Part shown: positions 6,715 to 62,249 of the stretch, one piece after another | Layout of the letters: each line of letters starts with the position of its first letter | How positions within the stretch are numbered: position 1 is the stretch's first letter | Origin: an uncultured virus (IMG/VR IMGVR_UViG_2061766007_004155) | Lineage: Duplodnaviria; Heunggongvirae; Uroviricota; Caudoviricetes | Length of the DNA stretch: 64,000 bases | Reading direction: 5' to 3' (one strand) | Virus record (IMG/VR): IMGVR_UViG_2061766007_004155 | The notes under the pieces: generated by a model | Seen by the model: only the letters and a program-made list of their open reading frames with translations | Databases searched by the model: none | What the model was told of the DNA's origin: nothing | Made by a program: the position numbers and the translations under genes

Positions 6715-7851
6715 TTATATATTATTTGTTATTGTCCTTAGATCATCGAGGTTGACGTCCTGATAATACCGAAGCATTTCAGATGATGTATGCCCAATCA
6801 GTTCCAACTTATCCTTATCGGCGCCGGATACCCGTTTCATTAAAGTGGCGAATGTGTGACGGCACGAATGCGGTGAGTATTTGTGTACGCCATTAGACAG
6901 GACAGGGTTTTCAATCTCACATTGTTCTAAAACTTTGTAGAAAACATTTTGACGGAAGTGAGAGTAATCCCACATAGCCCCCTTCGCAGTCTGAATAAGT
7001 GGGCCTCCCGTCCTACCCCCAATGATAGATTCTATATAAGGGAGAATCTTGGGAGAGACTGTTACAGTCCTGTTTGTTCCTGCTTCGGTTTTAGAACCGC
7101 CTACGAATGCTTTTTCTTTCCTGTCATAGTCTTTTACAGTCAAAGCAAGAAACTCGGCAGGGCGAAAACCAAGATATATCATACAGTAAATCCAATCCGC
7201 ATGGTCAACCTTACCTATTGACGTGCGGATTTTTTCTATTTCATCATCAGAAAACGCTGATCTAGGCTGTGGGTCATCTCCTGTTATCTTTAAATACTGT
7301 GCGAGATTTATGTTATCTGGGACAGCCTGACGTGGGATGCCGTACTTATAAACCAATCCGCATACAGCTTTCATGTTTTGCTGAGTTCGTTTCCCCTTAC
7401 CGCAGTCATCCAAGCATTCCTGTAGATCATCAATGTCTATGTCCTGCATTCGGGAGAACCAAACAGGCTCGAAATATTTTATAGCAGCCTTATAACAATC
7501 CATAGTTGATTTCCCTGCCTTGTGGGTAGGAAGCCATTTATCATAAAGCGCTTTAAACGTGATATCTTTCTTCTGCTTCCTGACGGGTTCACTTTGCAAA
7601 CGGGGAAGTGAGGCAACTGCTTCTTTCTTGGTATCAAATCTCTGCGACTTCGTTTTCCGTTTCAGCTTGCCGTTGTCATCAAGATAGTAACCGACAGTTA
7701 CAATAGCCCTGTAACGGTTTCCGTCTTTATAGACAGTACCCTGACCATTCCCGCGCCGTCTTAGCTTCTTCTCATGTATTTGCTTCTTACCACAATAAGG
7801 GCAGAATGCGAAATCGTCTTGTATTAACTTATTACATTTAACACAATTCAT
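6715..7851 (-). CDS. int: Tyrosine integrase
   Basis: GFRPAE (R), SKTEAG (K), HSCRH (HxxR), LIGH, YYQ (Y); N-terminal zinc ribbon and RRGNGQG arm-binding region. Confidence 0.95.
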   Translation of the reverse strand: MNCVKCNKLIQDDFAFCPYCGKKQIHEKKLRRRGNGQGTVYKDGNRYRAIVTVGYYLDDNGKLKRKTKSQRFDTKKEAVASLPRLQSEPVRKQKKDITFKALYDKWLPTHKAGKSTMDCYKAAIKYFEPVWFSRMQDIDIDDLQECLDDCGKGKRTQQNMKAVCGLVYKYGIPRQAVPDNINLAQYLKITGDDPQPRSAFSDDEIEKIRTSIGKVDHADWIYCMIYLGFRPAEFLALTVKDYDRKEKAFVGGSKTEAGTNRTVTVSPKILPYIESIIGGRTGGPLIQTAKGAMWDYSHFRQNVFYKVLEQCEIENPVLSNGVHKYSPHSCRHTFATLMKRVSGADKDKLELIGHTSSEMLRYYQDVNLDDLRTITNNI

Positions 7852-42051: not shown

Positions 42052-42309
42052 ATGAGGACTAAAACTGTTTTGGCAAAAGATTGGCATAGAGTGCCAAGGT
42101 ATCAGGATTACCCATACATGGCCACAATCAAAATTGAGAAAGCAACATCTGATATGTTCCCGTATACGGAATTTGAAAAGGATGAAGCTGAATCAGGAAA
42201 CTATGCAGAGATATGCGAATCCTTTAACGGTGGCGTTTATATCTTTGCTAAAGAACCCCCTGAGAAAGACATAACAGTTAATGTATCACTATTTAAAGGT
42301 GGAATATGA
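42052..42309 (+). CDS. Small tail-associated beta-domain protein (paralog 1)
   Basis: YPYMATI...SGNYAEICESFNGGVYIFAKE. Confidence 0.6.
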   Translation: MRTKTVLAKDWHRVPRYQDYPYMATIKIEKATSDMFPYTEFEKDEAESGNYAEICESFNGGVYIFAKEPPEKDITVNVSLFKGGI

Positions 42310-42830: not shown

Positions 42831-43295
42831 GTGCAATGTTCTCATGCTTATAAAATCGCAAACAGCAAATATATTTTCTGCGATATTGAAGGAACTCCAA
42901 CGTCAACTTCAAGCAATGAAGCAATTGCTCCTTATCTGTGTATATATCAGAATTTCCCGCCATTGGGGAATGGGAATATAGCAAACACAGTAGGATGGCA
43001 GGATTGCCCCAAACTGCAAGAAGCAGAGAGCCATGAAAAAACGGTTCTTGTAGCTGATTGGGTTGCAGACGGAACGTATGAGGATTATCCATATCGCGCA
43101 GCTATTCCCATGCAGGGTGCAACAACAGACAATTTCCCGTATGTAGAATTTCAGCAGAACGAACAGGAATCGGGGAATTACGCCGATGTGTGTATGTCTT
43201 ATGACGGCGGTGTTTATATCTTCTGTAAAGAGATTCCTTCAACAGCAATCAAAGTTTTTGTTTATCTCTTTATTGAGGATGGTGAAGTTGAATGA
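42831..43295 (+). CDS. Two-module tail-associated protein (paralog 3)
   Basis: N-half resembles ORF 29473; C-half YPYRAAI...SGNYADVCMSYDGGVYIFCKE. Confidence 0.6.
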   Translation: MQCSHAYKIANSKYIFCDIEGTPTSTSSNEAIAPYLCIYQNFPPLGNGNIANTVGWQDCPKLQEAESHEKTVLVADWVADGTYEDYPYRAAIPMQGATTDNFPYVEFQQNEQESGNYADVCMSYDGGVYIFCKEIPSTAIKVFVYLFIEDGEVE

Positions 43296-44042: not shown

Positions 44043-44339
44043 ATGGCATATTTAGATTATGAAGGTCTTCAGCATTATAAAAAGACAGAGAACGGTCAGA
44101 TCGCTCCTGTCGAGGAATTGACTACTGCTTCACAGGCCTATGCTGTTGGAGAATACTTTTGGTACGAAGGTAATTTCTGCAAAGCGCTAACACCTATTGC
44201 ACAAGGAGATGAGTTTGTGCAAAACACGAACTTCACAGTAGATAAGATGGGGAAAGACCTATATGAAGTTAAATCAAACTTCGATTCGTTAGGGCTGTCC
44301 GTAATCGACGGGAAAATTAATATAACCTATACTATATAA
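44043..44339 (+). CDS. Small tail-associated protein
   Basis: MAYLDYEGLQHY; AYAVGEYFWYEG; C-terminal LGLSVIDGKINITY. Confidence 0.6.
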   Translation: MAYLDYEGLQHYKKTENGQIAPVEELTTASQAYAVGEYFWYEGNFCKALTPIAQGDEFVQNTNFTVDKMGKDLYEVKSNFDSLGLSVIDGKINITYTI

Positions 44340-44352
44340 GGAGAATTAAATT

Positions 44353-45606
44353 ATGAGTATTGTTACTGATCCTATTATTTTGGACTCTACAGGGCATCTT
44401 ATTGTTGAAGGATTGGCAAGGCAAAATCTGCTTTTGAGCCAAATGGTAAGCGCCAACGCGCAAGCAACGCCTGTTGCTACACTTAACGAAATACATCAGA
44501 TCGTTCAAGCAGGAGAAGCGCAGAATGTGTTCTCTATTGGCGATCAGATAATGCTGAATTGGAGCGACGGTACAACAAGTTATGTTCTCCCTTATGATAT
44601 TGTGCATTTTGGAGATGTAGAACTGCAAGATGGGGAAACAGTTCCAGGTATGTTTATTCAAAGCCACTATGCTATGCAAGGCGTACAGTTTGATGCATCG
44701 GAAGCAATTTACGTTGCTACATCGGCTCTACCGGCAGGAACATACTATTTCACAATTGGAACATCATGGGGTACACATTGCGTTTCTGGTAAGACTTATC
44801 AGTTTACAACTACAAAAGAAATCCCTGTTGGTGGGCAGATTATGGTCGGCAAAAACAACGATTGGTGGACATGGGGTGCGCCTGATGTTGCACCATCAAG
44901 TTGGCGTGTACATACATTCTCATCTAATGCAGACACGACTCCACTTGAATCAAATCTGGCTCTGACGGAGGGGAGCAGTGGAACTGCTCTCGGTTCTGTA
45001 GCATCAAGTATCAAATACAGTCAAAGCGGTGTTAACAACTTGCAGAGAGCTGCTTATGGATACAACCGTTGGGGGCAGTCCGCAAATCGTCAGTATTACA
45101 ACAGCACAGCAACCTCCGGTGCATGGTGGACTCCGCAAAACCCATTTGACAGATCACCGCAACAGCTTGCTAATGTCCGTGGGTTTATGGCTGGGTTTGA
45201 CGAAGCATTTCTCAACATAATCAAACCTATAAAAGTTACTACGGCGCTGAATACTGTTACAGACACAGATATTGGAGCAAGTGAAACGACATACGATACG
45301 TTCTTCCTTGCGGCGCTTGAACAGGAATATATTGTGCCACAGGCAAGCGGAGAAGGCGTGTATTGGGAGTATTGGAAGCAGAGACTCGGACTTTCTTCTC
45401 CACAGGCACAAGGTTCGGATGGTACTAATGCCAAGCATATCAGGTACGCATACGATGCAAAGACCTCTGCTCAGTATTGCCGTTTGCGTTCTGCGTTTCG
45501 TGGCAATGCGTGCCATACGTGGCATGTCAACACCGCAGGCAGCGCCGGCACCGGCCACGGCGCCACGTACGCGTTTCGGGGCTGTCCGGCTTGCGTAATC
45601 TGCTAA
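44353..45606 (+). CDS. DGR target protein (putative receptor-binding protein, C-terminal variable CLec-like domain)
   Basis: 3' end matches TR; ends RLRSA...GCPACVIC. Confidence 0.9.
   Translation: MSIVTDPIILDSTGHLIVEGLARQNLLLSQMVSANAQATPVATLNEIHQIVQAGEAQNVFSIGDQIMLNWSDGTTSYVLPYDIVHFGDVELQDGETVPGMFIQSHYAMQGVQFDASEAIYVATSALPAGTYYFTIGTSWGTHCVSGKTYQFTTTKEIPVGGQIMVGKNNDWWTWGAPDVAPSSWRVHTFSSNADTTPLESNLALTEGSSGTALGSVASSIKYSQSGVNNLQRAAYGYNRWGQSANRQYYNSTATSGAWWTPQNPFDRSPQQLANVRGFMAGFDEAFLNIIKPIKVTTALNTVTDTDIGASETTYDTFFLAALEQEYIVPQASGEGVYWEYWKQRLGLSSPQAQGSDGTNAKHIRYAYDAKTSAQYCRLRSAFRGNACHTWHVNTAGSAGTGHGATYAFRGCPACVIC
45465..45593 (+). repeat. DGR variable repeat (VR)
   Basis: Aligns to 46124-46249 with substitutions only opposite TR adenines, plus one extra codon. 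Confidence 0.95.
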
Positions 45607-45617
45607 TCGTATAATCA

Positions 45618-45635
45618 GGGGGTCGCAAGACCCCC
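45618..45635 (+). promoter_or_regulatory. DGR target-recognition hairpin downstream of VR/IMH
   Basis: GGGGGTC-GCAA-GACCCCC, perfect 7-bp GC-rich stem with a 4-nt loop. Confidence 0.8.
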
Positions 45636-45683
45636 AATAAAAGAAAAATAAAATTTGTCATAACACATCAAGGAATATTGTTT

Positions 45684-46064
45684 ATGTCAGTTCCTGTCAA
45701 CAAAAGAACTCACGGAAAACTTGAAGCATATACAAAGGCTTTTGAGCTTGCCACCTATACGCTGAGAATCACAAAAAATAAAAAAGTATTTTCAGAAGAA
45801 TATCAGGAATGTCTAACAGACAAAATTATAGATGCTGCATTGGACATTTATATGCTTGTAGGATCAGCAAATGATGTTTCTGTTAGGTCTGAAAAAGACT
45901 ATCAAAATTTTGTAGATAGATGCGATATGCAAAGAGTGGCGCATAGAAGATGCGGTGATTTAAAGAAATTTATAACACTCGCAAAGCCGATTTTCCATTT
46001 GTCTTCAAAGCGCGTGAAGTATTGGACAGAACTGACGAAAGAAACACAGTGTCTCATTAAATAG
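45684..46064 (+). CDS. avd: Avd-like DGR accessory protein (TAG at 46062 may be premature)
   Basis: ~125-aa basic helical ORF between VR and TR; frame continues past TAG as WMDSDIKRF. Confidence 0.75.
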   Translation: MSVPVNKRTHGKLEAYTKAFELATYTLRITKNKKVFSEEYQECLTDKIIDAALDIYMLVGSANDVSVRSEKDYQNFVDRCDMQRVAHRRCGDLKKFITLAKPIFHLSSKRVKYWTELTKETQCLIK

Positions 46065-46123
46065 TGGATGGACTCAGATATAAAGAGGTTTTCGCGGTTT
46101 TTTGAAGATAAGCAGGGTGTAGG

Positions 46124-46249
46124 CTAAGCTCAGAATTGCCGTTTGCGTTCTGCGAATCGTGGCAATGCGTACAATACGTGGAATGTCAACACCACAGGCA
46201 ACGCCAACAACAACAACGCCACGAACGCGAATCGGGGCTGTCCGGATTG
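46124..46249 (+). ncRNA. DGR template repeat (TR)
   Basis: AAC/AAT-rich copy of VR located between avd and RT. Confidence 0.95.
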
Positions 46250-46389
46250 TGCCAGCAAAGGTTATAAGTTTTCTGCACAGCAGAAGAACACCAAAAAGCC
46301 TGACGCAAGGAGCTGAATCCCTTTCCGAACGGATAAACAACTAATCTATGATGCGGATGACTTTGAAAGGAGCCAGCTCCGCTATAAAC

Positions 46390-47427
46390 ATGGATACCTC
46401 TTTTGATATCGAAAAAGTAATAGGATTTGACGCGTTATATGCCTCTATGTGGAAATGCAAGAAAGGCGTTATGTGGAAAGATAGCACAGCCTCCTATGTG
46501 TTGAATGGAATTGAAAGAACCGCTAACCTTGAAGAGCAGTTAAAAAACGGAACTTATAAGGCAAGACCTACTGTTAATTTCCGCATCCATGCTCCAAAAC
46601 CAAGGGATATAGCAAGTATCACATTTAGAGATAGAGTATATCAACGTAGCTTGAACGACAATGCAGTTTATCCTATTATGAGCAAATCATTTATTCTCGA
46701 CAATTATGCTTGTCAGAAGCATAAGGGAACAGATGCGGCGAGAAAGAGGCTAAAAGAATTTTTGCATAGATACTACAGAAGACATGGGGATGTTGGATAT
46801 GTTGCGCAATTCGACATACATGGTTATTACCCCAATATGCCACATGCAATGACGGAATCATTATTCCGTGAAAAATTACCACCTGAGATTGCGGAAAGAG
46901 TCATTGAAATATTAAATAATCAATACGATGGTGACAATGGATACAATCCGGGTAGCCAACTTATCCAAATAGCAGGTATTTCTGTATTAGACAAGTTTGA
47001 CCACTATGTAAAAGAACAACTTCATGCGAAATACTATATCCGGTATATGGATGATTTTCTAATAATATCAGATGATAAAGAGTATTTATCTTACTGCATG
47101 GAAAAGATGACAACGTTTCTTGCTTCTATGGAATTTGAGATGAATACAAAGAAAACAAGAATATATCCACTGACAGAAGGAATAGAGTTTCTTGGGTTTA
47201 TATATCACCTTACCAATACAGGGAAAGTGATAATGATTGTTCGACCTGAAAATGTCAAACGTGAGAGGAAAAAACTGCGTAGACTTGTTGCAAGGTCTAA
47301 AAAAGGGAGTATTCCAAAGGATAAGGTGGATGAATCCTATGCTGCTTGGCGTAACCATGCAAGCAAAGGAAATTCATATAAGCTTTTGCAACGAATGGAC
47401 GAATATTATAAAAATTTATGGGGGTAA
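46390..47427 (+). CDS. DGR reverse transcriptase
   Basis: FRDRVYQR, QFDIHGYY, RYMDDF, IEFLGF; motif-4 region GYNPGSQLIQ; start uncertain (46348 or 46390). Confidence 0.95.
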   Translation: MDTSFDIEKVIGFDALYASMWKCKKGVMWKDSTASYVLNGIERTANLEEQLKNGTYKARPTVNFRIHAPKPRDIASITFRDRVYQRSLNDNAVYPIMSKSFILDNYACQKHKGTDAARKRLKEFLHRYYRRHGDVGYVAQFDIHGYYPNMPHAMTESLFREKLPPEIAERVIEILNNQYDGDNGYNPGSQLIQIAGISVLDKFDHYVKEQLHAKYYIRYMDDFLIISDDKEYLSYCMEKMTTFLASMEFEMNTKKTRIYPLTEGIEFLGFIYHLTNTGKVIMIVRPENVKRERKKLRRLVARSKKGSIPKDKVDESYAAWRNHASKGNSYKLLQRMDEYYKNLWG

Positions 47428-47432
47428 AAAAT

Positions 47433-47597
47433 ATGTTACTCAAGCGCAGGAGATTAGACTTGTCCGACTTGGCAGATTTGGAAAATGCAGAAGCAATAGC
47501 TGCAAAGAATGCTGCGAACATAGATTATATTGCTATGATGGCAGATATTGAAATTCCTACAGAGGAGGGTATTGATAATGCACAGCCCGAAGTTTGA
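47433..47597 (+). CDS. Small phage protein (54 aa, not in ORF track)
   Basis: MLLKRRRL...ANIDYIAMMADIEIP; precedes the XkdX-like gene. Confidence 0.6.
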   Translation: MLLKRRRLDLSDLADLENAEAIAAKNAANIDYIAMMADIEIPTEEGIDNAQPEV

Positions 47598-47718
47598 TAA
47601 AGTGAAGCGCTATTATGATAGCGGACTTTGGAATAAAGCTATGGTACGCAATGCTGTAGCAAAAGGATGGATTACTGCATCTGAATATGAAGAAATTACT
47701 AACGAGGTATATGAATGA
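47578..47718 (+). CDS. XkdX-family protein
   Basis: FDKVKRYYDSGLWNKAMVRNAVAKGWITASEYEEIT. Confidence 0.85.
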   Translation: MHSPKFDKVKRYYDSGLWNKAMVRNAVAKGWITASEYEEITNEVYE

Positions 47719-47918: not shown

Positions 47919-47992
47919 AGTGCTGTGGTGTAACGGTAGCACATGAGTTTTTGACACTCACGGAATAGGTTCAACTCCTATCAGCACCGCCA
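47919..47992 (+). tRNA. tRNA-Gln(TTG), phage-encoded, CCA encoded
   Basis: Cloverleaf: GTGCTG/CAGCAC acceptor, TGAGT-TT TTG AC-ACTCA anticodon arm, ATAGG-TTCAACT-CCTAT T arm. Confidence 0.9.
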
Positions 47993-49137: not shown

Positions 49138-49312
49138 TAGAAGTCCCTATTATTTATATCCCAATAAGCATAGTTTTACACGTTTTTGAAATGGCAGGAT
49201 TGTTATTTCTTCTTATAAAAGAGGTATTAGACAATGATTACCGAAGATGAGTTAGAACGAATGGTTAATGAGATGATTGAAGAACAGCGTAAGCTAAAGG
49301 AGAATGAACCTG

Positions 49313-50005
49313 ATGAGTGAACGCGTTGAAGATTCGTCGAAAAAATATACAGTATACGTTCACACCACTCCAGACGGGAAAAAGTATGTTGGAACAACAA
49401 GCAAAGGCTGTGAAGAACGATGGCATAGTGGATGGGGATATCATTCTCAAAAATTTTTTAAAGCCATTAAGGAATATGGATGGAACAATATTGAACATGA
49501 AATTGTTTTAAGCGGATTAAATGAAGAAGATGCTTACAAAGTCGAAAAAGTTCTTATTTGGTTTTTACACACAACGGATGAAAAATTTGGATATAATCGA
49601 TCAATTGGTGGGAAATTTGGAGGAACAGGAGTAGAAGCCCCACAATATATTAGAGATTTAAGAAGCAAACTAATGAATGAAAACAACCCGTTTAAAGGGA
49701 AACATCATTCAGAAGAAACAAAAAGAAAAATTTCAGAAGCAATGATTGGCAAATATTGTGGCGTTAACTCTTCTAGATATGGAGATAAAGATACTCCAGA
49801 GCAAATCGAAAGAAAGCGTATTTTAAAAAGCAAGCCGATTGATATGTATGACAAAAATGGGAATTATATAAAATCTTTTTTAAATTCCTTGGAAGCCGAA
49901 AAAGAAACAGGATGTAATCATTCAAACATAACACGTGTCTGCAAACGAAAAGCCAAAACAATTCATGGATATATTTTCCGATACAAGGGGGATAGCGTAG
50001 CATGA
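49313..50005 (+). CDS. GIY-YIG homing endonuclease with NUMOD3/NUMOD1-type C-terminus
   Basis: TVYVH...KYVGTT, GYN, GKHHSEETKRKIS, SLEAEKETG...ITRVCK. Confidence 0.88.
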   Translation: MSERVEDSSKKYTVYVHTTPDGKKYVGTTSKGCEERWHSGWGYHSQKFFKAIKEYGWNNIEHEIVLSGLNEEDAYKVEKVLIWFLHTTDEKFGYNRSIGGKFGGTGVEAPQYIRDLRSKLMNENNPFKGKHHSEETKRKISEAMIGKYCGVNSSRYGDKDTPEQIERKRILKSKPIDMYDKNGNYIKSFLNSLEAEKETGCNHSNITRVCKRKAKTIHGYIFRYKGDSVA

Positions 50006-52023: not shown

Positions 52024-53332
52024 TTGACACTCCCCATGACTAAAGTCAGGGGATTCTTGGGTCATCGAGTGTAGCGCCGAAGTTGCGTCTTACATACTCT
52101 CACCAAGCGTTAGGTTCGGGACTGTCCATCCCTACCGCATATTGTTTATGCTGAGATGCATATACCTTCTTTTAAAATGTTTATAGCTGCATTTTCGTCT
52201 CTATCGTGATGTGTACCGCATTCGGGGCAAATCCACGATCTTATTGCGAGGTTTTTTGCGTCTCTGTTACGGTATCCGCAACATGAACACAATTGAGACG
52301 ATGGGAAGAAAGTGTCAACTACAGAAACGGTTCTTCCGTACCATGATGCTTTGTATTCCAATTCACGGCGGAACTCAGAAAATGAAGCGTCAGATATAGA
52401 ACGTGCTAATTTGTGATTTTTCATCATACCTTTGGTTTTCAGGTTTTCAATGCAAATCACATCATACTTGCGTATTAAATCTGTCGTTGCTTTCTGAATG
52501 CTATCACGCCTCTGATTGGCAATATGTTCCTGAAGTTTGGATAAACGAATCCTTGCTTTTTCGTGGTTTTTACTTCCGAGTTTTTTACGTGACAATCTAC
52601 GGGACAGCTTGCGCAATTTCTTGTCCTGCTTATAAAGAAACTTGTTATTCGGATAGCGCTCACCGTCAGAAGTTGTAGCTAGTGCTTTAATGCCAAGATC
52701 AACACCTACAACAGAACCGGTTGCTTCAAGAGGCTCAATCTCAACATCCGCACAACAGATAGACACGAAGTATTTCCCGGAAGGATTTTGTGATACTGTT
52801 GCTGACAAGATTCTACCTTTAACCTCTTTGCTGATCTTGCATTTTACAAGACCAAGCTTCGGAAGCTTAACTTTTTTATCTACGATAGCAATATTTTCAC
52901 CAACACGCTTAGACTTGTAGCTTTTTCGAGCTTTACGCTTGCTCTTAAATTGGGGAAATCCTGGCGCTTCTCTATTTTTCACTCTTCTGAAGAAATTCTG
53001 ATATGCAGTATCAAGGTCACGAAGAGATGATTGCAATGCTGTAGAATCGACTTCTTTAAGCCATTGAAGTTCTTGTTTGAGGTTGGTTAATTCGTTAGAA
53101 CAGGCATAGTAATTCAAAGTTTCTTTTGTCTCTTTGTATGCTTCAATACGAAGTCCGAGGAAATAATTGTAAACATATCTACAGCATCCGAAAGTACGTT
53201 GTATTAAGTTTTCCTGTATTCTGTTTGGATATATACGAAACTTATATGAATACTCCATGATTAAGCCTCAAACGTTCTTTTGGTTTTCTATGTACTTCAT
53301 ATCTAAAGATAGGGGTATTACGCCACAAAATG
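52024..53332 (-). mobile_element. IS200/IS605-family solo-tnpB element (IS1341-like)
   Basis: On the minus strand TTTAT precedes the left end; right-end hairpin CCCCTGACTTTAGTCATGGGG ends in TCAA; no tnpA. Confidence 0.75.
52146..53258 (-). CDS. tnpB: RNA-guided endonuclease TnpB
   Basis: YKFRIYP, GVDLG (D), IENL (E), CSCCG/CPECG, DRDENAA (D). Confidence 0.95.
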
Positions 53333-53342
53333 ATAAAGTAAA

Positions 53343-54460
53343 CTAACACAGTAAACTAACACATTCGGCTACAATTTCTCCTGCTTTGTAGCACTCTTCT
53401 ACTGTGTTATCCTTGGAGAATGAAACGCGTATTGAGCTTCTTGCTTCTTCATCAGTTAACCCTATTGCCTTTAATACATGGCTTGGCTCTCCATCAGAAG
53501 CGTTACAGGCAGAACCCGCAGAAGCACATACGCCTTTAGCATCCAACATCATTAACAGTGATTCTGCTGAAACGCCATCAAAACGAACATTCAAAATTTT
53601 AGAAGCGTAAACAGGGGAGTTGTAGTGAATAATATCTTTTAGATTCTTTTCATATAAGGAATGCTCTAAACTGCCCATGAANNNNNNNNNNNNNNNNNNN
53701 NTTGATCGTTTTCTCTTGCATTTTCTTTCGCAAGTTCACAAGCTTTCCCGAATCCAACTATTCCTGCTACGTTTTCAGTTCCACCACGAAGACCATATTC
53801 CTGAGACTCCCCGCCGTGAATAAGCGGGAAAAACTTATCAGGCTCTTTTACAAACAATGCTCCAACACCCTTCGGGCCGTGGATTTTGTGGGAAGAAAGA
53901 GTAAGGAAGTCACATTTGAATTTCTTTACATCTAATTCTGCAAAGCCAGCTGCCTGTACGCAATCGGTATGGAATGGTACATGATTAGCTTTGCAAAGAC
54001 TACCTATCATTTCTATCGGGTTCTCAATACCTAACTCATTGTTTGTGTGGATAACGGAAAGCAAAGAAATATTATGAGCATTTACAGATATTTGCTCTAT
54101 GAGGCTGTCAAGATCAACGATTCCTTGAGATGTTACAGGAAGGACAATTAAACCTAAAAACTTTACTATTGAATCATGTTCTGTAGCGGTTGTGACTATA
54201 CTTTTTTGCCCGAAAAGTTTAGCATTATGGATCACCATGTTGTTTGCTTCTGTCCCGCTTGAAGTAAATATAATCTGTTCAGGGGAAGCGTTGATGAACT
54301 TTGCTACCTGTTTTCTTGCGTTATAAACTGCGTCATAAGCGGTTCTCCCCATAGAATGAAGAGAACCCGCATTACCATATGATGACGTTAAGAACGGCAT
54401 CATTGCATCCAAAACAGCCGAATCTATTGCGGTTGTAGCCGCATTGTCTAAATATATCAT
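53343..54460 (-). CDS. Cysteine desulfurase (IscS/NifS family; N gap inside)
   Basis: MIYLDNAATT, FTSSGTEANN, HTDCVQ, SSHKIHGPKGVG, RGGTEN, SAGSAC. Confidence 0.92.
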
Positions 54461-54702
54461 ACGATAATCTTTCCTACCTTCTGCCTTGAGTAGTAGAATG
54501 TACTCCCCAAATATCCACAATGCGGGCATCTAAGGTATGTGTTTCCACGTTTGCTTTCAGATGCGGTATTCCCGTTGGCATAGAACGGTTTTGAACAGCG
54601 TAGGCAGTTTACTGACGCACCGTCATGGATTTCGTGCTGTCTTACTACACCTTCAGTAGAAATGCGCTCAACAATAGGGAACGTAGCTTTATTCATTTTC
54701 AT
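54457..54702 (-). CDS. Small zinc-ribbon protein
   Basis: CLRC...CPHCG. Confidence 0.55.
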   Translation of the reverse strand: MKMNKATFPIVERISTEGVVRQHEIHDGASVNCLRCSKPFYANGNTASESKRGNTYLRCPHCGYLGSTFYYSRQKVGKIIV

Positions 54703-61389: not shown

Positions 61390-61702
61390 GCTCTCCTCCG
61401 TTGTAACTGCCGCAGTTGGGGCAGAAGTTGTGAAGTGGTTGAACATGGATTTTTGTGAATACATACCCACATTCAGAACATTTGTAACGGAAGATTTCAA
61501 GACCGTTTAATAATTCAATTCTGTCACCACCGTTGTCTTCCCACTTTCCATGCCTGACTTCCGCAACATCTGCGGATGGGATGGAATCAATGGCCCGAGC
61601 CGCATCCCCACGAATGACCCAACAGTAACCGTCACCGTCTACCTTTGGCACAAGTTTTAGGATGGCGTTAAATGCCGCTTCTCTTTCGATGCAATCAGCC
61701 AT
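61379..61702 (-). CDS. Small zinc-ribbon phage protein
   Basis: IPSADVAEVRHGKW...CSECG...FCPNCG. Confidence 0.75.
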   Translation of the reverse strand: MADCIEREAAFNAILKLVPKVDGDGYCWVIRGDAARAIDSIPSADVAEVRHGKWEDNGGDRIELLNGLEIFRYKCSECGYVFTKIHVQPLHNFCPNCGSYNGGEHGT

Positions 61703-62249
61703 CTGTTTCCTCCTTTGGCGGTTCGGGGAAATACGGAACGCACTTCCATGTCACACCGTTAATAGCGTTCTGCATTGTTTTCTTCGATACTCCGTATCTA
61801 TCAGCAAGTTCTTGAAACGATGTTCCCTTATAGGCGCGTTCCCATCTCGCGTCTTTGACAGTTTTCTTCGTCAGCTTTGATGTTATTTGTTCTTCTCCAA
61901 CCTTTACAACATTGCGCCCTTTGCGTTCTCTGTCGGCTACGTTGTCTGCTCTCGTTCCCAAAAACAGATGCTCCGGGTTTATACAGGATGGATTATCGCA
62001 TTTGTGGCACACTTCAAACCCGTCCGGGATTTCACCATTCCATGTGATGTATGCCAATCTATGCGCTCTTTCAGAACGACGCGTTCCGTCTGTTCGGCTA
62101 CCAACTATTGTGTGTCCGTAGCCGCCTCTTTTGCATCCAGTCCACTCCCAACACCCAGATACGGGATTGACTTTCATGTTTGCTTTAAGACGTTCTTCAA
62201 TTGGCATGGTCGGCATACCGCGTTTTCTTGCGCTATAATCAGGTTTCAT
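61695..62249 (-). CDS. HNH endonuclease
   Basis: CWEWTG; AHRLAY; VCHKCDNPSCINPEHLFLGTRADN. Confidence 0.92.
   Translation of the reverse strand: MKPDYSARKRGMPTMPIEERLKANMKVNPVSGCWEWTGCKRGGYGHTIVGSRTDGTRRSERAHRLAYITWNGEIPDGFEVCHKCDNPSCINPEHLFLGTRADNVADRERKGRNVVKVGEEQITSKLTKKTVKDARWERAYKGTSFQELADRYGVSKKTMQNAINGVTWKCVPYFPEPPKEETDG

Follow-up and report, generated by a model that had tools for sequence, protein, structure and literature searches.

A diversity-generating retroelement with a nonsense codon in avd and a putative tail adhesin as its target in an uncultured caudovirus

The DNA analyzed here (64,000 nt, referred to as the window) comprises bases 1–64000 of the 73,468-base provirus record IMGVR_UViG_2061766007_004155 (CheckV completeness 95%) from an uncultured member of Caudoviricetes. 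It carries a diversity-generating retroelement (DGR), in which a target gene ending in a variable repeat (VR) is followed by a hairpin, avd, the template repeat (TR) and then a gene for reverse transcriptase (RT). That the locus is a genuine DGR is practically certain, and its past activity is visible in the population; the DGR of this particular copy is probably impaired by a nonsense codon in avd. An earlier reading based on the sequence only had described a complete DGR of the type found in Bordetella phage BPP-1. The BPP-1 gene order is borne out by our analysis; the completeness is not, as avd holds a private nonsense codon here and is intact in the six other metagenomic runs compared. 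In our interpretation, this target-avd-TR-RT element has changed the C-terminal repeat of a likely tail adhesin at its adenine positions and, at times, in its length.

Repeat pair, reverse transcriptase and RNA elements

VR and TR constitute the one repeat in this region of the window that is both long and strong (blastn E-value 4.8e-30, 83% identity over 125 nt). When the extra codon of VR (see below) is scored against AAC, 20 out of 20 mismatches fall opposite TR adenines (chance probability approximately 1.5e-11, with A at 36 of the 125 positions); when it is left as a gap, there are 18–19 substitutions, every one of them opposite an A in TR. Mismatches away from TR adenines, which the sequence-only reading had named as evidence against its own proposal, were not observed, and each of the codon changes it quoted (AAT>TAT, AAT>TTT, TAC>TGC and AAC>GGC) is present. 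The 4-nt extension at the 5' end that it had included in both repeats (from 45465 and 46124) also conforms to the adenine rule. Its codon-by-codon alignment requires correction: VR exhibits a 3-nt insertion, which places five NNC codons opposite the four AAC codons of TR.

The runs that best match the stretch are mostly bovine gut metagenomes, and 8 of the 24 listed runs (X1–X7 and X18) were compared at the contig level. X1 and X2 represent one sample (runs of 2011 and 2015), which may be the source of the window, and the other six runs (X3–X7 and X18) are independent and come from five studies. Among these six, 84 of the 85 listed VR differences map to TR-A positions (the lists are complete for X4, 26/26, and X6, 20/20, and reach 23/24 for X3). 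The single exception is a T>C change at 45585 in X4; in the same contig the corresponding base of TR, 46241, is likewise changed from T to C, the one TR difference listed over the six runs, and such a paired change is expected if TR is copied into VR. The divergence of VR between samples is 14–16%, versus 0.2–0.4% in the flanks (X3, X4 and X6, with one long contig each). A VR that varies at A-sites and a TR that stays nearly invariant, the pattern previously suggested as a check, are thus found between samples. The same bias is seen in related loci, whose 27 repeat pairs exhibit 443 A-site substitutions and 21 others, 12 of the latter stemming from one unrelated tandem repeat.

The VR tract at 45547–45561 reads GGC ACC GGC CAC GGC. 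The window, X4 and X6 all carry the extra codon together with a TR that still has four AAC codons, and in any pair of these five-codon tracts 4 of the 5 codons differ; it is absent from X3 and X7 and, on our reading of loose ends, also from X5 and X18. In-frame VR insertions were found in 5 of 26 TR/VR pairs (the 27 pairs minus the tandem repeat of locus L010), and deletions in none. This rate was compared with the 14/372 of Wu et al. (PMC5758913), yielding a Fisher p of 0.005, or 0.02 without the window, with kinship among the pairs inflating the significance. In 120 target homologues, whose TRs are not known, the corresponding segment comprises 30 residues in 84 cases and 31 in 29, and is longer in 3 and shorter in 4. 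An in-frame codon insertion in an AAC tract belongs to a class described in PMC5758913, and slippage on AAC repeats has already been proposed (PMC5758913, PMC12875486); no mention of indels was found in the accessible part of PMC4372165. AAC slippage itself is known, and only its apparent frequency here is notable. As regards single loci, TR itself contains five AAC codons in L014 (4696–4822) and four in its close relatives L012, L013 and L015, and the VR of L013 exhibits a 6-nt insertion.

Both repeats contain CGGGGCTGTCCGG (45577–45589 in VR and 46233–46245 in TR), in agreement with the previously noticed GC-rich end, which by analogy with BPP-1 may serve as the initiation of mutagenic homing (IMH) element. 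The GCAA-loop hairpin past the target stop codon was confirmed as well, with a spacing of 11 nt instead of the 12 nt given earlier; its fold has a z-score of -2.8, and 2 of 200 shuffled sequences fold equally well. The related loci that were folded have a predicted hairpin in the same position, with different stem sequences. The consensus reported for the hairpin loops of phage DGRs is 5'-GRNA (PMC3240598), and the GCAA loop does not match it, which speaks against this part of our interpretation.

The RT with its YMDD motif is present as described. It matches phrog_1423 (E-value 3e-79), the family that is matched also by the BPP-1 RT, Brt, and in a tree of 15 RTs, which included no retron RT, it groups with five published DGR RTs, while four group II intron RTs split off with 100/100 support; the clustering with group II intron RTs that had been named as contrary evidence was not observed. 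The best PDB match is 8UB7 (328 aa, E-value 1e-24), which we take to be BPP-1 Brt, as its length agrees with that of the sequence used in the tree. Or perhaps the RT could belong to a group II intron, a retron or a defence system, with the repeat being incidental? The NCBIfam models for group II, Drt and retron RTs do match it, but far under the cut-off (at best 90 bits where 300 are required), and the list of models is nearly the same for BPP-1 Brt. The RT does not display the features of a group II intron RT/maturase, namely grouping with LtrA-type RTs and a PQG motif. The tree refutes this explanation for group II introns and, with adenine-only TR/VR differences recurring in the related loci, its overall probability is negligible.

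The 3' end of avd and the spacer between TR and RT are predicted to form an RNA duplex, with 103 of 104 cells paired over 13 sequences; six of the eight pairs are invariant and one changes on both sides. The spacer folds are predicted in 13 of 13 sequences, with the last stem-loop weak in this copy (-1.9 kcal/mol), and the spacer RNA has no match in Rfam. In the BPP-1 complex, Handa et al. (bioRxiv 10.1101/2023.10.23.563531) described a duplex between avd and the spacer as well as stem-loops, and the spacer may, with modest support, contain counterparts of these cis-priming RNA elements. By analogy with BPP-1, the avd-TR-spacer RNA would fold on RT and Avd, and its reverse transcription would introduce errors at adenines; the resulting cDNA would replace VR, beginning at the GC-rich end beside the hairpin. 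A slip of one AAC would add one codon to VR.

Table 1. Coordinates of the element, its predicted RNA and DNA structures and the adjacent genes (window numbering)
Feature	Position	Strand	Remarks
Upstream gene	44043-44339	+	98 aa, directly 5' of target; no Pfam/PHROG match
DGR target	44353-45606	+	417 aa, DUF6273; PF19789 E 2.7e-6 (over cut-off); phrog_19280 E 2e-32
VR	45469-45593	+	target codons 373-414; from blastn self-comparison and adenine-site differences
IMH-like end	45577-45606	+	adenine-free GC-rich 13-mer common to TR, then divergence from TR
Hairpin/cruciform DNA	45618-45635	.	GC-rich; 7-bp stem, GCAA loop
avd	45684-46127	+	147 codons in intact allele, 126 here; phrog_3206 'Avd protein of DGR' E 1.5e-10
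3' avd duplex strand	46114-46125	+	predicted pairing with spacer 46311-46322 (cPRT-stop-like RNA duplex)
TR	46128-46249	+	length 122 nt, including 34 adenines; AAC four times in tandem (46206-46217)
Spacer RNA	46250-46347	+	predicted stem-loop in a position resembling that of the Avd-binding one (46268-46289), partner strand of the avd duplex (46311-46322), then a short stem-loop and adenines
DGR RT	46348-47427	+	359 aa, open; start codon could also be 46390; RVT_1 E 8e-15
YMDD	47044-47055	+	RT residues 233-236
XkdX-family small gene	47575-47718	+	PF09693 E 1.7e-18; 3' of cassette

The premature stop codon in avd

The avd homologue sits between the target and TR, as in the avd-containing DGR architecture. 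The avd-like gene reported earlier is thus present, but in this copy it is truncated by a TAG at 46062–46064 (codon 127), which is followed by 20 further codons in frame up to the TAA abutting TR. The A at 46063 is found in both X1 and X2, which were assembled separately (coverage about 11x) and whose contigs are otherwise identical to the window. In all six other runs codon 127 is TCG, with C at 46063 (coverage 87x in X3, 45x in X4 and 4–7x in the rest), and Ser127 is found also in four 147-aa members of the cluster, one of which may be the X3 contig. The collected loci contain 28 distinct Avd open reading frames, and the other 27 out of 27 extend beyond the next Trp (a 'NO-W' flag assigned to L038 is a pattern miss; the Trp is there). 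The TAG lies one codon ahead of Trp128, and the lost residues Trp128, Asp132 and Arg135 are kept in 12 of the 12 other rows of the alignment. The PHROG match extends to position 131 in the full-length relatives and in BPP-1 Avd, and to position 113 in the cut Avd. In the curation of Wu et al. (2018), a putatively functional DGR has core genes free of premature stops; this copy has one, and none occurs in the six other runs. No second copy of avd or RT was found in the 73-kb record, and exact-pattern scans for the region of the avd stop returned 0 matches in viral contigs and 0 in metagenome contigs, sets that possibly exclude records nearly identical to the window.

In BPP-1, cDNA synthesis needs Avd (PMC6182149, PMC5758913). 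Since the conserved end of Avd is lost here, this dependence suggests that the present copy is probably impaired: with 21 residues missing from its end, Avd would allow little if any synthesis of cDNA, and the VR found in the window would thus be the last one written. Several observations weigh against this interpretation. The cut Avd retains 126 residues and is basic (pI 9.3), and the BPP-1 Avd has 128 aa. X3, X4 and X6, with avd intact, likewise assemble VR as one allele, and therefore the single VR in X1 and X2 is no sign of inactivity. The single-sequence model of Avd is unusable (pLDDT, i.e. predicted local distance difference test, of 44) and the profile comparison with BPP-1 Avd is not significant (E-value 0.61), so that the structural cost of the cut is hypothetical. 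The Avd family scores far under the NCBIfam Avd cut-off (best E-value 0.015; 5 of 13 members), and its profile has no match among PDB sequences at E-value ≤10. Finally, an Avd of the host or of a second prophage could act in trans, the analysis covering the virus record.

The DGR could still be active, if the 126-aa Avd retains a sufficient part of its helical bundle, if low-level readthrough of the TAG occurs, or if the host supplies Avd in trans from another locus. The open RT, the intact TR and hairpin and the predicted spacer RNA elements would agree with such activity, and the cut takes off only the end of the Avd family core; against this stand the conservation of the lost residues in all other aligned members, the lack of a suppressor tRNA (the sole tRNA is Gln-TTG), the lack of TAG recoding in the phage and the absence of a second avd from the record. 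We regard continued activity as rather unlikely, although as the most plausible competitor of impairment. Recoding of TAG (code-15 type) was tried and rejected: it raises the coding cover only from 0.658 to 0.676, the relatives exhibit TCG, and there is no suppressor tRNA. As a further possibility, the TAG could have arisen as an error of sequencing or assembly, or the population could be mixed, with the TAG in one of its alleles; in line with this, the TAG occurs in a single sample (probably that from which the window derives), and contigs drop rare variants. The agreement of two separately assembled runs from different years on the same base makes this explanation highly improbable, and impairment by a genuine nonsense codon remains our preferred interpretation. 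As a separate observation, the 39,669-nt contig P0193 codes for an Avd of 79 aa that shows full identity to the N-terminal portion of the one in the window and may represent a second truncated allele of this phage or a contig edge.

The target protein and its likely role

The target has 1505 homologues at E-value ≤0.001 and was modeled with a mean pLDDT of 82.8, low in the first 30 residues and 60–75 across much of VR. The best solved fold for this model is the N-terminal domain in the Thomasclavelia ramosa IgA peptidase (9QA6; Z 17.3, rmsd 2.8, 215 residues aligned, 18% identity), which has also been assigned to DUF6273 (PMC12402451). Below it, most of the top 50 rows are C-type lectin (CLec) folds with Z of 4–6, including the DGR target TvpA (2Y3C; 136 residues aligned at Z 5.3 and rmsd 4.4) and 4EPS (157 residues at Z 5.6 and rmsd 5.0). 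The CLec fold that the sequence-only reading had proposed to look for is thus recognizable in the predicted structure, and the target is predicted to be a DUF6273 protein with a CLec-like core and a large inserted region. A point against this assignment is that Z of 4–6, obtained with a 417-residue model, falls in the 'common' range of the tool. DUF6273 targets have been assigned the CLec fold before (PMC10743442), and VRs have been located at the C-terminus of DUF6273 (PMC11792537). Comparison of the target with PDB sequences yielded no match at E-value ≤10, it is not a homologue of the BPP-1 target Mtd by sequence, and Mtd is not among the matches listed in the fold searches.

The genomic neighborhood suggests a function in the tail. 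Upstream genes include a tape measure protein, a tail protein and a weak tail-fibre match; in relatives, the upstream genes are of tail-fibre or baseplate type in 3 of the 7 loci scanned (L007, L026 and L031), and 3 of the 6 long homologues scanned are fused to BppU_N or YadA-head domains. The cassette is followed by a small gene of the XkdX family, and XkdX genes usually come after tail-fibre genes. Viral DGR targets in general are annotated mostly as tail proteins (PMC8144416). Based on its position, neighbours, fusions and the downstream XkdX gene, the target is likely to be a tail adhesin, the varied residues of which would form the binding face of the CLec-like domain at the tail tip. The earlier proposal of an adhesin is thus supported by context and fusions; the role itself is still inferred.

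This assignment has to be weighed against another one, namely that the target is a virion decoration or a surface adhesin for mucus, glycans or antibodies (tentaclin/Hoc-like) and does not bind a bacterial receptor. The target matches phrog_10993 'Hoc-like head decoration' (E-value 3e-14), which counts against a tail adhesin, and its best fold comes from a peptidase of a gut bacterium that acts on IgA. The Hoc-like match is, however, confined to the DUF6273 part (profile positions 45–225 of 556), and a common fold does not imply a common ligand. The target is also not a tentaclin, a type in which Ig domains come after an N-terminal CLec with VR, as its VR is C-terminal and no immunoglobulin (Ig) family of Pfam matches it, and the gene lies past the tail genes and has homologues fused to BppU_N. 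We therefore consider a decoration protein unlikely and retain the tail adhesin as the preferred prediction.

The gene directly upstream of the target ends with a peptide of the LGLSV(V/I)DG type (in the region 44250–44339 of the window), which constitutes the end of the upstream gene in 10 of the 10 related loci inspected (L001, L006, L019–L021, L025, L027, L033, L038 and L050; 8 of them aligned), the rest of the upstream genes being different. Judging from this conservation, the peptide is possibly a docking end for the target protein.

Related loci, known systems and genomic neighborhood

Fourteen viral loci contain the target, and 12 of them reach its 3' end; 5 of these 12 lack TR and RT and keep the target and the hairpin. 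In L021, avd-TR-RT is cleanly gone. In L019 (2711–3400) and L020 (3071–3780), eight avd codons are followed by an unrelated insert of about 700 nt replacing avd-TR-RT; L020 is 98% identical to L050, which retains avd, TR and the start of RT up to the contig end. The insert is nearly the same in L019 and L020, two different phages. L022 is 97% identical to the intact L018 and is joined across a 9-nt repeat, and L025 retains an avd whose end is altered. Comparison of L018 (6585–7901) with L022 (6585–6593) reveals deletion of TR and RT, with the 9-nt repeat occurring at the ends of both avd and RT; this repeat is possibly a deletion hot spot. In the work of Wu et al. (PMC5758913), more than half of the DGR candidates were set aside because of stop codons, truncation, poor repeats or the shortness of the contigs, and therefore decay itself is known. 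Among the papers listed in a literature search, which covered few subscription papers, none dealt with the present group of phages or with a selected shut-off of DGRs. One may speculate that in this rumen-phage lineage AAC slippage routinely lengthens the binding loop by entire codons and so adds a second axis of diversification (5 of 26 pairs; at least 3 of 7 samples of the phage, with differing letters), and that recurrent, possibly selected loss of avd, TR or RT locks in an adhesin that has proved successful, with the target and the hairpin receptive to a TR in trans; we regard this scenario as doubtful.

The element resembles that of BPP-1 (mtd-avd-TR-brt; architecture B of Wu et al. 2018, PMC5758913) in gene order, in the avd stop abutting TR and in the C-terminal VR, as well as in the adenine-specific change, the GC-rich VR end, the downstream hairpin and a YMDD RT of the same PHROG. 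It differs in that the RTs are about 27% identical, with the motif PGSQLIQ where BPP-1 has IGSLTSQ, the target is unrelated to Mtd in sequence, the GC element comprises 13 nt with two T, the hairpin loop is GCAA and not GRNA, avd is broken, and VR is one codon longer than TR. Another group of similar systems comprises the DUF6273 DGRs of gut phages, i.e. target 2 of nd4/nd12 (PMC10743442), the Faecalibacterium phages Lelie, Roos and Pioen (PMC11792537) and the Roseburia phage Shimadzu, which share a CLec-like target with a C-terminal VR. The RTs of gut-phage DUF6273 DGRs are 31–38% identical to that of the window, and those of nd12, Lelie, Brigit and Shimadzu belong to the same clade (97/96 support). 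Unlike these systems, the present one has a single target (no second VR in the entire record by an A-tolerant scan) without Ig repeats, and its 417 aa with the insert exceed the 234–294 aa of the nd4/nd12 target 2. The closest solved fold, 9QA6, also represents DUF6273, but it belongs to a cell-wall peptidase of non-phage origin, and the likeness concerns the fold.

DGRs acting on DUF6273 targets of gut phages, AAC-linked indels and inactivated copies have already been published (PMC10743442, PMC11792537, PMC5758913). The element is a genuine DGR of a known kind, with a target of a known family and two known non-canonical features, and this lineage may already figure in the per-element tables of PMC5758913. 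Its interest lies in a natural experiment, i.e. near-identical phages that differ by one avd base and one VR codon. This phage set would allow a direct test of the need for the Avd C-terminus, of the frequency of VR-lengthening slippage and of DGR shut-off as decay versus selection, and the match to 9QA6 offers a solved template for the binding face of DUF6273.

As regards the wider neighborhood, the DGR is preceded by genes for terminase, portal, tape measure and tail proteins and followed by endolysin and holin genes. A search for the host via target relatives in GTDB genomes gave 38 candidates, none of them confirmed; one target homologue (74% identity) carries the label Oscillospiraceae. 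The single tRNA gene, tRNA-Gln(TTG) at 47919–47992, about 500 nt 3' of RT, is the sole Rfam match. Two homing-endonuclease-like genes are found at 49304–50005 and 61695–62249, of which one, with NUMOD motifs, lies directly 5' of the endolysin gene and the other is of the HNH type. Past the holin gene there is an IS200/IS605 OrfB (TnpB-like) gene (370 aa, 52146–53258, minus strand), and a gene for a class V aminotransferase, which we label cysteine-desulfurase-like, is broken by a run of N (53343–54529, minus strand). The provirus record contains two tyrosine-recombinase genes, at 6715–7851 and 63362–64321 (both on the minus strand, the latter extending beyond the window end). Shufflon-type docking sites were considered and are unsupported, as the flanks of the cassette give only 10–12-nt matches at chance level and the nearest recombinases lie at 6.7–7.9 kb and 63.4–64.3 kb. 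Finally, a 113-nt repeat (68% identity) links 42142–42254 and 43119–43231, between small genes of the tail region that have a YPYRA-type motif in common.

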